Source: Candidatus Freyarchaeum deiterrae (GTDB lineage Archaea; Asgardarchaeota; Jordiarchaeia; Jordiarchaeales; Jordiarchaeaceae). Taken from it: 64,000 bases of DNA. This document shows, piece after piece, positions 1 to 45,574 of this stretch. Every line of letters begins with the position of its first letter. Position 1 is the stretch's first letter. The notes beneath the pieces are model-generated. The model ran no database searches and had not been told where the DNA came from. It was given only the letters and a program-made list of their open reading frames with translations. The DNA is taken from contig CP147778.1 in the NCBI GenBank assembly GCA_037305845.1, positions 2,592,001 through 2,656,000 on the forward strand, written 5' to 3'. A program made the position numbers and the translations under genes.

Positions 1-1807
1 GATAGTCGAGTTTAGATTTTTTTATAGAAGTATCCTTCGAAAGAGAGTTTATAGAATTCAATGTGATGACTTCATTTTTATCATGAAATACCAAAGTTTC
101 TTCGATAAATGGAAGTTTTTTCAATTCGAGTCTAGCGTTGGTTAATAATCTGGGTTTCTGGTGGAATAGACAGACCTTTTTCGGTTTCAAAGCTCTTAAC
201 ATCTTTTCTATTTGTAGAAAATCAGCATGTAGATTTATTATCTCTGAGGGATTTTCAAAGTTAAAAATCTCTGCATTAATTTTGTAATTACACCCTTCAA
301 CTATAATATTTTTGTTGCCTGAAGCCAATTCTATTGCATTCCTTGTTCGTAAAGCACCTGAAAGATAAATCAAATTGTATTTTTCTATCCCGAGTTCAAG
401 TAGTATCGTTTGGATCGCTTTTCCAGTTAAATCTGGTGGATCAAAAATTATTATACTTCTCTTGGTTTGAATTGCCTTTTCAATATCTGACCATCCTAAC
501 ACCCACCTGATTAATGCACTAGAAAAAGGATTAAGTCCTTTATTTATATCCTCTTTTATCACAGGATGAAGATCCTCCTTTCTCGTTTGTATAATTTTGA
601 TGAATTCCAAAATCTTACGGTTTAAAAAGATCGTCGGTCGTTTTTGAAAATCTTTCTTTGTTTGCAAAGATCTGAAATAGTGGAAAATTTTCAAATAAAG
701 AACTATTGCAACACTAGCAGGATCAGCCACAATTAAAACTTGATTATTGTAGATAGCTTTCTTTTTAAGAACAACTTTCAGTTTATTGATAATATATTGT
801 GGAGCTAAATATTTTAGGTGTGCGGAAGATCCATCTAAAAGAATGAAATCTGTATGCCTAGGCAAATCACGAATAATTTGCTTAACTCCTGTAATTGGAA
901 AATAAGTATAATAAGAAAAATCTCCAGTATATAAGAATCTAAAATTATTAAACTCCACAAAAAACATTAAAGAACCAGGCATATGACCAGCATGAAAGAA
1001 TTGGATGAAACCATTTTTGAAAGAAATTTTCTCTTTATTTTCTACGGTAATAACATTTTTAACGACACGAATAATATTCTGGGGTAACTGAATTTTGTCA
1101 TTATTAAAAAAACCAGAAACTGTAGAATTAAAGACAAAAATATCTGAAGTAGTTTTAGAACAAATTACAGGCGTATCTGGATATTTCTCTATAAGAGATA
1201 CTAAACCGCAGCAATGATCATAATGAGCATGGCTTAAGAAAATTAGATCAAGCGATGGGAGTTTATTCTTTAAATTCTCAATATCTTTATGAGATAAACC
1301 GGCGTCGAGAAGAATAGCCTTTTCACCTATCTTCAGGAGAAAACAATTCATGCCTGGTTTCAAACAAATACTTTCTAATTTTAATTCAGCCTTATCCTTA
1401 AAATCCCACTTAGTAAAATCGAAATTAAGTCTTGGAATCCGATCTACATAATCTGAAATAATACTTCTGGGTAAAACAATCCCAGTTAAATAAAAATACC
1501 ATCCAGTATTTTGTGTTAGATAATTTAATTTTTTAAAAGTACTTTTTGAATCTTCCATTCGTAAAACGATAATATCTATTTCGTCGCAACGGATAATTTC
1601 ATCTATTCCCTCTTTATCCCATGACGGTATTTCCTGATCCTCGTAAAAAAACCAATTTATTGCTTCTTCAAAAGATTTCTTCTTTATCTGATTCTTTTCC
1701 AACGCTTTCATCGTCTTAAAATATAGACGCGTTTTATATTGTTGGGGTGAATCTGTAGTAGAAATTGGAATTCTTTTACCCTTAAAGATAAATTCGTTTT
1801 CTTTCAT
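1..1807 (-). CDS. MBL-fold beta-CASP family nuclease with ~140-aa N-terminal extension (3' end runs off the window)
   Basis: Absent from the ORF track. Manual translation from ATG at 1807 stays open to position 2 (MKENEFIFKG...). Motifs LLDAG, SHAHYDH, HAGHMPGS, YTGDFS, LHAD and LFHQ match MBL/beta-CASP motifs. Confidence 0.85.
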   Translation of the reverse strand, partial: MKENEFIFKGKRIPISTTDSPQQYKTRLYFKTMKALEKNQIKKKSFEEAINWFFYEDQEIPSWDKEGIDEIIRCDEIDIIVLRMEDSKSTFKKLNYLTQNTGWYFYLTGIVLPRSIISDYVDRIPRLNFDFTKWDFKDKAELKLESICLKPGMNCFLLKIGEKAILLDAGLSHKDIENLKNKLPSLDLIFLSHAHYDHCCGLVSLIEKYPDTPVICSKTTSDIFVFNSTVSGFFNNDKIQLPQNIIRVVKNVITVENKEKISFKNGFIQFFHAGHMPGSLMFFVEFNNFRFLYTGDFSYYTYFPITGVKQIIRDLPRHTDFILLDGSSAHLKYLAPQYIINKLKVVLKKKAIYNNQVLIVADPASVAIVLYLKIFHYFRSLQTKKDFQKRPTIFLNRKILEFIKIIQTRKEDLHPVIKEDINKGLNPFSSALIRWVLGWSDIEKAIQTKRSIIIFDPPDLTGKAIQTILLELGIEKYNLIYLSGALRTRNAIELASGNKNIIVEGCNYKINAEIFNFENPSEIINLHADFLQIEKMLRALKPKKVCLFHQKPRLLTNARLELKKLPFIEETLVFHDKNEVITLNSINSLSKDTSIKKSKLDY

Positions 1808-37244: not shown

Positions 37245-37502
37245 GAAAAATAGGGACATAATAGTTCAAAAGCTGGGAGAAAAATAAGTCACTTACAATT
37301 ACTGATCAAAGTATTGCTCTGAAAACTTGAGGTTTTCATAATTTGCTCAAAACAATTTTAGCGTATGAGGTTTTATCCTCATAATTGCTTTTCCTTCTTT
37401 GTCGAGACGCTAAATTAATTATTTTTTACAGTGGATATAAATATTATAATTCTTACAAAAAATATAAGTATTGTTATTTCACAGTTTATTTGGTGACCAT
37501 AA

Positions 37503-37772
37503 ATGTCTACAATCCAAGTTGACGAGGAAACAAAAAGAAAACTTTTAGATATTGCCGGCCGGCTTCAGTCTGAGCTTAAGAAAAATGTCACCTTTAATGA
37601 CGCAATCAGGTTTCTCATCGATGAGTACGAGGGGAAGAAAGACTTCAGTGCCTTACGTCCCTTCTTCGGCGTTCTAAAGAAGAGTCCGGAAGAGGTGAGG
37701 AGGATTCTAACTGAACTCAGAGACGAGGAGGAGAAGAGACTTGAAAAGTTTACAGGGCAATCTAGCGGTTGA
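37503..37772 (+). CDS. VapB-type antitoxin
   Basis: STIQVDEETKRKL...TFNDAIRFLI; overlaps the PIN gene. Confidence 0.75.
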   Translation: MSTIQVDEETKRKLLDIAGRLQSELKKNVTFNDAIRFLIDEYEGKKDFSALRPFFGVLKKSPEEVRRILTELRDEEEKRLEKFTGQSSG

Positions 37773-38175
37773 CACAAGTGCTTGGGTAGAATACTTCCTA
37801 GAAACAGAACTTGGAGAGAAACTTGATAACTATCTCAGTTCCCCTGAGCCCAAAAAAGTTTACATCTCCCTGTTCACACTCTCCGAAATTTACTACGTGC
37901 TGTGCAGGGCTGGCGGAGAAAAACTAGCCGAAGAAAGCTTAGAAACTCTAAAAGCCATAAAAGACTTGGTTATAGAAAGATCTGTGGATTTGGCTGGGAA
38001 AGCGGGAAGTCTAAAATGCAAAAGAGCAATATCACTAGCCGACTGCACTTGCATATCCTTGGCAGAAAAATATGGATGTCAGGCTCTCTTCGCTAGGAAA
38101 GAAAGAGAAATAGAAGAGGAAGAGAAGCGGAAACCATTCAAAGTAAAATTGATTTTCCTTGAAGAACAATATTAA
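37741..38175 (+). CDS. vapC: PIN-domain toxin (VapC)
   Basis: AVDTSAW, LSEIYY, ISLADC. Confidence 0.85.
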   Translation: MKSLQGNLAVDTSAWVEYFLETELGEKLDNYLSSPEPKKVYISLFTLSEIYYVLCRAGGEKLAEESLETLKAIKDLVIERSVDLAGKAGSLKCKRAISLADCTCISLAEKYGCQALFARKEREIEEEEKRKPFKVKLIFLEEQY

Positions 38176-41774: not shown

Positions 41775-41999
41775 ATGTTAGTTAAATTCGAGGTTTATAA
41801 TGACGGCGAATACTGGTGTGCTCGTGGTATCGGGGTGGATATTTTCACTCAGGGTAAGACACTGGATGAACTCATGGGAAACGTAAAGGAGGCAGTTGAA
41901 CTTCATTTTGACGAGGTGTTATCCTCAGGGGTGGACATACAGATATTGTCGATATTCGAGTTTGAGGTGCGCTCACTTGCCGAAGCTGCCGGTAGTTAG
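41775..41999 (+). CDS. hicB: HicB-family antitoxin
   Basis: IFTQGKTLDELMGNVKEAVELH. Confidence 0.85.
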   Translation: MLVKFEVYNDGEYWCARGIGVDIFTQGKTLDELMGNVKEAVELHFDEVLSSGVDIQILSIFEFEVRSLAEAAGS

Positions 42000-42225
42000 C
42001 GGAGAAAAACTGGTAAAACTGTTAAGGAAGATGGGATACGAGGTAATCCGGCAAAGAGGTAGCCATATAGTACTACGAAAAATAACGGAAGGGGGAGAAC
42101 ATAACATTACTATACCTAATCACCATGAGATCGCAAAAGGAACACTTAACGACATATTATCAAAGGTATCAATATGGAATAATATATCGAAGGATAATTT
42201 GATTGATATGCTTAAGAAAATTTAA
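41977..42225 (+). CDS. hicA: HicA-family toxin
   Basis: TTG start LPKLPVVSG; RQRGSH; IPNH.EIAKGTL. Confidence 0.88.
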   Translation: MPKLPVVSGEKLVKLLRKMGYEVIRQRGSHIVLRKITEGGEHNITIPNHHEIAKGTLNDILSKVSIWNNISKDNLIDMLKKI

Positions 42226-43003: not shown

Positions 43004-44308
43004 TTATTGTGCTTGTTGTTTAACTTTTCTGGGGTCGGTTATTTCGCCCTTTACTGCTGAGGCGGCGACTGTTAGTGGGGATGCTAGGTAAACCTTGCTG
43101 TCTTTGCTGCCCATTCTTCCTATGAAGTTTCTGTTTGAGGAGGATATACAGACCTCTCCGGGTCCCAGTAAGCCGGAGCTTCCTCCGATACAGGGTCCAC
43201 AGTGTGGGTTGCAGATCACGTTTCCTGCGTCCATGAATATGTCTAGGAGTCCTTCGTGCATCGCTTGGGTGTAGACTTCTCGGGAGGCGGGAATAACTAT
43301 TCCTTTTACTTCTCTGGGAATTTTTTTGCCTTTCATAATTTTTGCTGCTGCCCTTAGGTCTTCTATTCTGCCGTTTGTGCATGAGCCTAGGAATGCTTGG
43401 TTTATTTTGATTCCCTCGACTTCTGAGACTGGAACCGAGTCTCCGGGGCTGGGGGGCATTGCTACTTGGGGTTCGAGGTTGGATACGTCCATTTTTATGA
43501 CTTCTTCGAAGTCGGCGTCTGGGTCGTTTTTCACCACTTTGAATTTTTCCTCTGTTCGAGACTTGACCCACTCGACGGTTTTTTCGTCGGGTTCAATTAT
43601 TCCAGCCTTGGCTCCAGCTTCTATAGCCATGTTGCTCAGGGTGAATCTTCCGTCAACACTCAATTCTCGGACAGCTTCTCCAGCGTATTCCATGGTTTTG
43701 TAGGTGGCTCCTTCCACTCCTATGTCTCCTATTATCCTGAGAATGATGTCTTTGCCCATAATGCATCTCGGAATTTTGCCCGAAATCTCAAACTTCATGG
43801 TGGCTGGAACCTTAAACCACAACTCTCCAGTAGCGAGAACCATAGCCATATCAGTGGAACCTATACCGGTACTGAAGGCTCCGAGGGCACCATAAGTCGT
43901 GGTATGAGAGTCGCTCCCAACAATGAGGTCTCCTGGCTTTACGAAGCCCATCTGGGGGAACACCACATGGCAGATTCCCTCACGCATCCCTAGCCAGTTA
44001 TCAATATTGTACTTGTCCACAAATTCCTGGCACTTCTGATGGATAATAGCCTCATCCACTGTTCCCGCAGGAGTCCAGTGGTCTATTAGTGCCACTACCC
44101 GATTCGCGTCCCACACATGATCCAAGCCCAGTTCATCGTAAATCTGGGCGATGCGCAGTCCGGTCAACCCTTAGCATGAGGAGGGCTGATTTCCGAGCAT
44201 CTCGTGTACCATGACGCGGTCAATCGTGGCGTTTACAATGTCTCCGGGCTCAACCTTCTTGTTTCCGGAGTGGCTAGCCAAAATCTTCTCCGAAATTGTC
44301 ATTCCCAT
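43004..44308 (-). CDS. leuC: 3-isopropylmalate dehydratase / homoaconitase large subunit (LeuC/HacA type), interrupted by a 33-nt insert at 44158-44190
   Basis: True start ATG 44308 ([11 protein letters not shown]) is in frame with the track ORF but separated from it by TAA at 44173-44171. DH, GICH, DSHT, GSCTNGR, CGPC and SNRNF motifs are intact. Confidence 0.9.
44158..44190 (-). other. candidate bulge-helix-bulge mRNA intron (33 nt)
   Basis: 4-bp helix UCGG/CCGG, 3-nt bulges AAA and ACU, 8-bp intron stem UCAGCCCU/AGGGUUGA; canonical cleavage removes the stop and keeps the frame. Confidence 0.7.
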
Positions 44309-44446
44309 AAATCAAATCCTCCAAAAGATAACAATCCAATCAATTACCTACAACACTACTACTCCAATCATAATAATTTTGCATTGAGAACAAGTAACTT
44401 ATTCCCGCATGCTTTTTTTATTTTTTCATCATAGCTCCAAATTCTC

Positions 44447-45574
44447 TTAAGATTTTTCAATTTTTTGCACTACTGCGTCTCCAACCTCTGAGGTGGTACT
44501 CGGGGTTATACCGCTGTACTTTCCGTAGCATAAATCTGGTGTTCTAATACTCTCCTCACTCAGAACGCTGGCGACGGCTTCTTCTATTTTAGCGGCTGCT
44601 CTTTCGCACGCTTTATCATTGTGCTTTAGAGCTAACCATTCGAGCATCATTTTTCCGGAAAGGATGGAACCTATTGGGTTCGCTTTGTTTTGACCCGCTA
44701 TATCGGGTGCGCTGCCGTGAACTGGTTCAAACATCCCGTGTTTCTCACCGATATTCCCGCTGGGAGCCATACCCATTCCACCGATTAGTACTGAGGAAAG
44801 GTCGGATAGTACATCGCCCATGAAATTCGATGTCACCACTACATCATAATGTTCAGGTGTTCTAATCATCCACTGGGTCATGGCGTCAACGAACACGTAG
44901 TCTCTCTGAACCTTCCCATAGCTTCCTGCTACTTCGTCGTAAATTTTTCTGAAGAATCTGCATCCGTCCAACACGTTGCTCTTATCAACGCAGGTCACAC
45001 GATTCTTACCGTCGCTGGGGGCACCGTTACGCCTCAGGCATAATTCAAAAGCGTAACGAATAATCCGTTCAGCTCCCTTTCGGGTAATCACTCTGACATC
45101 GATAGCAAGTTCATCAAGTCCTCCCCTGCTCAGCATGCCTCTGATGGGTACGTAAAGCCCCTCGGTGTTCTCCCTGACCACCATGAAGTCCACATCTTTG
45201 GGACCCTTGTCCAGAATTCGAGACTCAATTCCCTCGAACAACTTGGCGGGTCTTAAATTAACATAGAGATCCAAATCAAACCTCATACCCAGCAAAATGT
45301 CTATACCCGCAAGAACACCGTTAGGCTTGACTGCTCCGGGGTACCCTATGGCTCCGAAAAGAATAGCGTCGTTATTCTTGCAGGCCTCCCAGGCTTCGTC
45401 AGGCCACTCCTTTCCACTCTCCAGGTAGTACTTGCCGCCGCACGGGTACTCCTCAAAATCGTAATCAAAACCGGTGACCGCGTCTCGGGCAGCCTCCAGA
45501 ACCTTGACGGTTTCCGGAACAACTTCTCTGCCTACTCCATCACCGGGAAGAACCACAATCTTGTATGCCCTCAT
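44447..45574 (-). CDS. isocitrate/isopropylmalate dehydrogenase family (LeuB/AksF/tartrate dehydrogenase-like)
   Basis: Likely start MRAYKIVVLPGDGVG; NLRP, RENTEG, VDKSNV, GDVLSD, FEPVHGSAPDIAG. Confidence 0.93.
   Translation of the reverse strand: MRAYKIVVLPGDGVGREVVPETVKVLEAARDAVTGFDYDFEEYPCGGKYYLESGKEWPDEAWEACKNNDAILFGAIGYPGAVKPNGVLAGIDILLGMRFDLDLYVNLRPAKLFEGIESRILDKGPKDVDFMVVRENTEGLYVPIRGMLSRGGLDELAIDVRVITRKGAERIIRYAFELCLRRNGAPSDGKNRVTCVDKSNVLDGCRFFRKIYDEVAGSYGKVQRDYVFVDAMTQWMIRTPEHYDVVVTSNFMGDVLSDLSSVLIGGMGMAPSGNIGEKHGMFEPVHGSAPDIAGQNKANPIGSILSGKMMLEWLALKHNDKACERAAAKIEEAVASVLSEESIRTPDLCYGKYSGITPSTTSEVGDAVVQKIEKS

Follow-up and report, generated by a model that had tools for sequence, protein, structure and literature searches.

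A predicted tRNA-type intron within the coding sequence of a LeuC/HacA-family gene in the Asgard order Jordarchaeales

In the genome of Candidatus Freyarchaeum deiterrae, a gene encoding the large subunit of a LeuC/HacA/DmdA-family dehydratase is broken near its 5' end by a short insert carrying an in-frame stop codon, and the question raised by this locus is whether the insert is spliced out of the message, skipped during translation, or the mark of a split or a dead gene. The host genome consists of one contig of 3,576,204 bases, and the closest relatives of the host are named Jordarchaeia, Ca. Jordarchaeum madagascariense and Freyarchaeota. The window analyzed here is a stretch of 64,000 nucleotides of this contig (CP147778.1, positions 2,592,001 to 2,656,000). 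From the comparison of sequences set out below, it appears highly probable that the insert is a genuine archaeal tRNA-type pre-mRNA intron of the bulge-helix-bulge (BHB) kind, removed by the endonuclease EndA, with ligation of the exons by RtcB.

The interrupted gene and the anatomy of its insert

The host gene lies on the minus strand, with its start at 44308 and its end at 43004, and its uninterrupted reading stops at a UAA (44173-44171) after 45 codons. The gene and its neighbors are arranged as follows (the 15 variants are described in the next section).

44447..45574, minus strand: LeuB/AksF/tartrate-dehydrogenase-family gene, intact, immediately upstream; below all equivalog cut-offs
44318..44322, minus strand: Shine-Dalgarno-like GGAGG ahead of the exon 1 start codon; GGAGG before the start in 15/15 variants
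44191..44308, minus strand: exon 1, comprising 39 codons and the first base (A) of the Met codon at the junction, with the conserved His-Glu/Asp pair of the family
43004..44157, minus strand: exon 2, the remainder of the LeuC/HacA/DmdA-family dehydratase large subunit, 384 codons
42426..42953, minus strand: LeuD/DmdB-family small-subunit gene, intact, immediately downstream; above the TIGR02087 cut-off

The codons of exon 1 align to positions 1-36 of the PRK00402 profile and those of exon 2 from position 42 onward. The large subunit scores above the cut-offs of TIGR01343 and PRK00402 (with exon 2 alone, 552 bits versus a cut-off of 385) and below the LeuC and HacA equivalog cut-offs. More generally, none of the three genes, whether for the large subunit or its LeuB-like and LeuD-like neighbors, reaches a LeuB, LeuC, LeuD or Aks equivalog cut-off, and their pathway may be other than leucine synthesis.

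Between the two exons, the predicted intron and the elements of its BHB motif occupy the following positions.

44158..44190, minus strand: putative 33-nt BHB intron, with an 8-bp stem (44189-44182 with 44171-44164), a variable 10-nt loop and the in-frame UAA
44199-44197 with 44156-44154, minus strand: exon helix, UGC with GCG, 3 bp
44193..44196 with 44160..44163, minus strand: 4-bp central helix, 5' strand UCGG (exon) with CCGG (intron); paired in 15/15 variants
44190..44192, minus strand: 5' bulge AAA, predicted cut 44191/44190; exon side always A, intron beginning with A or G
44157..44159, minus strand: 3' bulge ACU, predicted cut 44158/44157; intron ending in C, U or A, exon side always U

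The original prediction had placed the helices, bulges, stem, loop and UAA on these very bases of the minus strand, and all of them match; deletion of 44158-44190 likewise yields the 423-aa product that it had announced, with the junction VHEMLGMRIAQ. It had also made its case dependent on the insert being supported by reads. The insert is real and not an assembly error, as five independent Logan contigs encode an identical truncated downstream protein and a further assembly carries an identical insert. In that further assembly of the same organism (positions 1370-2673 there), single-base indels are present just past the identical insert and in the upstream gene, and these are probably long-read errors.

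A motif of equal strictness occurs in the host genome at a frequency of 7.4e-5 per site and length. No second copy of the insert was found in the host genome, and no Rfam family matches it at gathering score. The stability of the whole region is unremarkable (folding z-score of -0.48). The exon helix measures just 3-4 bp, and a slipped register competes with it: in this copy, folded as isolated RNA, the slipped exon helix has a pair probability of 0.3-0.87 versus at most 0.15 for the canonical one and leaves a 5-nt 3' bulge, the canonical fold lying about 1 kcal/mol over the minimum energy. Because the z-score is ordinary and the slipped helix is favored in this copy, a single sequence is insufficient to decide whether the insert is an intron.

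Conservation and covariation across Jordarchaeales

An insert is found at the same codon in all nine orthologues found in Jordarchaeales, which belong to two families and share 69-88% protein identity. Together with loci from other collections, these orthologues provide 15 distinct insert variants, whose lengths (29, 30, 33, 36 and 40 nt) cover all three frame classes. Removal according to the EndA rule nonetheless gives a protein of 418-423 aa reading HEMLGMRI in 15/15 variants. Every variant also has two 3-nt bulges around a 4-bp central helix, plus the exon and intron helices on either side, and the full motif is present at the predicted cut register in all 15 variants versus none at each of 24 shifted registers, obtained by sliding the deletion 1-12 bases each way. 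The predicted cuts bound the variable stretch, the adjoining exon bases being invariant and the first and last intron bases varying.

The pairing itself is maintained through sequence change. Among aligned cells, 95.6% are paired and seven pairs are altered on both sides, against 23-43% paired when the partners are slid as a control; the variants are kin, and these covariation counts are not counts of independent events. In the central helix, one change among the variants is compensatory and several are one-sided, the intron strand reading CCGG, CUGG, CCGA, CUAA or CUGA with pairing kept each time. RNAalifold, unaided, recovers the central helix and the intron stem, yet chooses the slipped exon helix. 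The canonical fold is the minimum-energy structure in 7 of the 15 variants and lies 3.6-6.8 kcal/mol above the minimum in three.

The slipped register, which is possible in 15/15 variants and favored in this copy, raises the idea that splicing is coupled to a regulatory switch, in which the slipped helix would compete with the cleavable fold and splicing efficiency, and with it the level of the enzyme, would track translation or the load on EndA. Such a switch would add to the intron reading rather than replace it, and a role as negative regulator has been proposed for the cbf5 intron (PMC2738675). We regard it as unlikely: the protein sequence dictates the bases of the slipped helix, whose conservation is therefore uninformative, the loop varies freely in both length and sequence, and the intron-bearing genes described below are functionally unrelated. 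The original prediction had read the insert as a spliced intron, possibly regulatory. The first half of this reading gains from the order-wide conservation, the compensatory changes, the frame restoration at five lengths and the homologues with HEMLGMRV/I presented in the following section, while the second half is unsupported.

Synonymous changes exceed replacement changes, e.g., 163 versus 46 codons, with a ratio of about three to one within the genus, and this excess indicates that the gene is alive; both exons are under purifying selection in two families. The claim of the original prediction that the gene and its neighbors are otherwise intact is consistent with this selection and with the intact flanking genes. 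A disabling insertion into a gene whose function is supplied by a paralogue could be envisaged, since the genome contains two additional LeuC/HacA large-subunit paralogues. Such a dead gene would have to reconcile exons that are intact and selected in two families, intact operon neighbors and a frame restored for inserts of all five lengths; its likelihood is negligible, and the hypothesis was discarded as effectively refuted by conservation.

In a quick tree built on exon 2 only, the intron-bearing genes form one clade (SH-aLRT 99), divided by family, and this clade is loosely joined (85) to intron-less genes with HEMLGMR. Among the above-threshold matches in a sample of 301 genomes, no other Asgard genome shows the same kind of break. 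Most likely, the ancestor of the order gained the intron a single time, which is the simplest history. In the second family, the intron-bearing gene has no small-subunit gene behind it, i.e., the neighborhood has changed and the intron has been retained.

The protein junction and alternatives to splicing

Homologues of at most 61% identity are all of full length (78/78 at 415-424 aa), and it was to such intron-less proteins that the original prediction had left the choice between HEMLG and HELTG at the junction. Eleven of the 78 read HEMLGMRV or HEMLGMRI, including proteins named Helarchaeota and Promethearchaeota, and one HEMLGMR homologue was confirmed as insert-free at the DNA level. One intron-less homologue that shares the junction shows no gap in this region when aligned to the solved Methanocaldococcus enzyme. 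The caveat that another 33-nt deletion would give HELTGLR, closer to consensus, does not hold: when the 31 stop-removing 33-nt deletions were scored against a profile of the 78 intron-less homologues, the BHB deletion was the best (43.5 versus 40.8 bits), with the HELTGLR version 2.7 bits lower. We also looked for a spliced full-length protein of Jordarchaeales by exon 2, by exon 1 among longer proteins and among cluster members, and found none in a collection that consists mostly of genes called on DNA, which makes this weak evidence.

The same junction bears on translational bypassing of the T4 gene 60 type, in which ribosomes would take off at GGA (Gly39) and land on a GGA 33 nt further on, giving HEMLGLRI. 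Bypassing is typically recognized by a take-off and a landing codon together with a hairpin and a stop (PMC8211752), and this copy indeed presents matched GGA codons 33 nt apart with a hairpin and a stop in between. However, four variants have GAA or AAA as their landing triplet, through changes that preserve the central helix, the stop lies 3-12 codons downstream instead of directly after the take-off codon, and the intron-less homologues carry a Met that only the BHB cut produces. Bypassing is thus barely conceivable here.

A third possibility is a gene split without splicing, in which an N-terminal peptide of 42-51 aa and a C-terminal chain of 380-387 aa, restarted at UUG (44167), would assemble into one enzyme. 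Gene callers annotate two parts in all relatives, the upstream stop often overlapping the UUG, and UUG is present in most inserts of the first family. Nevertheless, the restart codon is not conserved, some inserts of the second family offering only CUG, starts and stops fall at differing places, and the restart, unlike the exon 1 start, has no Shine-Dalgarno sequence at a working distance. A split gene would moreover leave the exon-intron helix, the fixed 3-nt bulges and the compensatory changes unexplained, and inserts of the same geometry in kae1 and within the catalytic codon of cbf5 (see below) cannot be split genes. We therefore hold this arrangement to be very improbable. The His-Glu pair just upstream of the insert is the counterpart of the Gln-Asp that binds the substrate in aconitase, and a product devoid of exon 1 is therefore unlikely to work.

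Returning to the intron reading, the central helix, the bulges with their flanking helices, the restoration of the frame and the presence of EndA and RtcB are the four testable criteria, and by all of them the insert is classified as a predicted BHB pre-mRNA intron. Archaeal EndA cuts each bulge after its second base. In the proposed mechanism, folding of the transcript would pair four exon bases with four intron bases close to the intron's 3' end, between two 3-nt bulges, the pre-mRNA adopting the canonical register. A two-subunit splicing endonuclease would then cleave after the second base of each bulge, as suggested by EndA chemistry and the presence of the enzyme, and RtcB, also encoded in the genome, would ligate the exons. 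Excision of the 33 nt would rebuild an AUG at the junction and give the 423-aa large subunit. The common ancestor of Jordarchaeales would have acquired the intron a single time, and it would have been retained because it is removed by a machinery on which the lineage already relies heavily for its tRNAs.

Other candidate introns, splicing machinery and known systems

The original prediction suggested scanning other apparent pseudogenes of the genome for BHB motifs. Our scan, which retained motifs whose removal fuses two coding stretches and applied a folding filter, gave 8 matches with the true cut rule, versus 0-1 with the cuts one base off and 1-3 with wrong bulge sizes as a control. A relaxed version gave 7 matches versus 1 and 1 in the controls, while coding score alone, without the folding filter, gave 39 versus 24-29. 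The filtered scan is conservative, as it missed the inserts in alba and fadH, which were confirmed separately. Matches sit within hallmark motifs of cbf5 (GTL-D-PKV) and kae1 (GPG-L-GPC), and also in pcm, hdrC and an HD protein. The candidates are listed below, by genome position or by position in the excerpted locus.

Genome 2203715-2203742, minus strand: kae1 insert, 28 nt, inside the GPGLGPC motif
Genome 1483415-1483446, minus strand: cbf5 insert, 32 nt, splitting the catalytic Asp codon
Excerpted locus 335-366, plus strand: BHB insert in pcm (protein-L-isoaspartate methyltransferase), 32 nt, ISAP-H motif
Excerpted locus 366-396, plus strand: BHB insert in an HD-domain gene, 31 nt, HDIGH-G-PFSH
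Excerpted locus 446-484, plus strand: insert in an hdrC-like gene, 39 nt, second Cys motif
Genome 1125569-1125598, plus strand: alba insert, 30 nt, BHB geometry, frame restored
Genome 2494680-2494713, plus strand: insert in a fadH-like gene, 34 nt, BHB geometry, frame restored
Genome 735531-735558 (plus strand) and 1876899-1876927 (minus strand): additional scan matches resembling typical 28-29-nt introns
Genome 3551591-3551617 (plus strand) and 199081-199135 (minus strand): additional, weaker scan matches

The leuC insert would thus be one of at least eight such predicted mRNA introns in this genome. In Jordarchaeales, 10/10 kae1 loci carry the insert, at lengths of 13-29 nt (down to 13-14 nt in the second family) and with a perfect central helix in nine, and it also occurs in three genomes of 1.3-1.4 Mb from another family; 13 others that were scored lack it. 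For cbf5, the insert is carried by 11/11 loci of the order and by five genomes from three further Asgard families, and 14 lack it. Kae1 is a near-universal tRNA-modifying enzyme, and only one copy each of kae1 and cbf5 was found per genome; these messages must therefore be repaired somehow.

The machinery that would do so is encoded in the genome. Two genes with EndA domains are present, one with the Tyr/His/Lys motifs and the second without the His, as expected for a catalytic and a structural subunit, which we presume them to be, and there is one RtcB gene. The two EndA genes lie near genome positions 1921033 and 1733162. Two EndA paralogues are likewise found in most genomes of this class, whose two families rank first and second in tRNA intron load (bioRxiv 10.64898/2026.10.13.758758), and introns in 92-95% of tRNA genes have been reported (PMC11291895). 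ARAGORN recovered only 17 tRNA genes from the whole genome, several of them plainly mis-called, and this low count is consistent with multi-intron tRNAs defeating standard tools.

The closest precedent comes from Sulfolobales and Desulfurococcales, whose cbf5 intron is of the BHB type, measures 16-44 nt and was shown by cDNA to be spliced (Watanabe 2002; Yokobori 2009, PMC2738675). Like it, the predicted leuC intron is a short BHB intron in a coding sequence (29-40 nt here versus 16-44), with cuts between the second and third bases of the bulges, a variable interior, a position conserved across an order and a hetero-oligomeric EndA; the Asp codon split by the cbf5 insert of the present genome is, moreover, the one described for crenarchaeal cbf5. 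The two cases differ in that the leuC host is a metabolic Fe-S dehydratase of an Asgard lineage with several such introns in unrelated genes, and in that splicing was demonstrated by cDNA for crenarchaeal cbf5 while we infer it for leuC. A 2020 study, for which cbf5 was the sole earlier mRNA example, added a BHB intron that lies in the 5' UTR of HVO_1309 from Haloferax volcanii (PMC7714728). There too an mRNA is a substrate of the tRNA splicing endonuclease, as predicted for leuC, but the HVO_1309 intron is outside the coding sequence and breaks no reading frame, in contrast to that of leuC. The tRNA introns of Jordarchaeia and Atabeyarchaeia (PMC11291895; bioRxiv 10.64898/2026.10.13.758758) share the motif and come from the lineage with the heaviest tRNA intron load known, but these papers cover tRNA genes only, and the 2026 preprint contains neither "mRNA" nor "cbf5". 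As to the product, the predicted spliced protein is a LeuC/HacA/DmdA large subunit of full length (TIGR01343, PRK00402; solved relatives 4KP1, 4NQY and 4KP2). Our literature search for Asgard mRNA introns, with subscription papers mostly outside its scope, found only papers on tRNAs, and as far as the literature could be searched, BHB introns in coding sequences are those of the cbf5 family only, plus the one 5' UTR case. What is new here is the host gene, the lineage and the number of introns.

Taken with the other candidates, the leuC insert is very probably spliced, as part of a multi-gene system. It seems quite likely that in Jordarchaeales and other Asgards tRNA-type splicing of protein-coding messages is routine and genome-wide, with kae1, cbf5, pcm, hdrC, alba and leuC dependent on it and with introns as old as the order and down to 13-14 nt in length. 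If so, the closest prokaryotic relatives of eukaryotes would carry out mRNA splicing in multiple genes by means of the ancestors of TSEN and RtcB. Eukaryotic RtcB still ligates XBP1 mRNA. An intron conserved in a metabolic gene, in addition to those of kae1 and cbf5, would also make endonuclease-based mRNA splicing far commoner than assumed.

A practical consequence concerns annotation. Public annotations of this gene are wrong throughout the order: the database proteins of at least 70% identity, 42 out of 42, lack the N-terminus and measure 334-390 aa, and metabolic reconstructions and pseudogene counts of Asgards accordingly need an intron-aware pass. In the window itself, ARAGORN detects no tRNA gene, and the translations alone suggest two further gene pairs, one resembling a PIN-domain toxin-antitoxin system (37500-38175) and the other a HicB/HicA pair (41775-42225).
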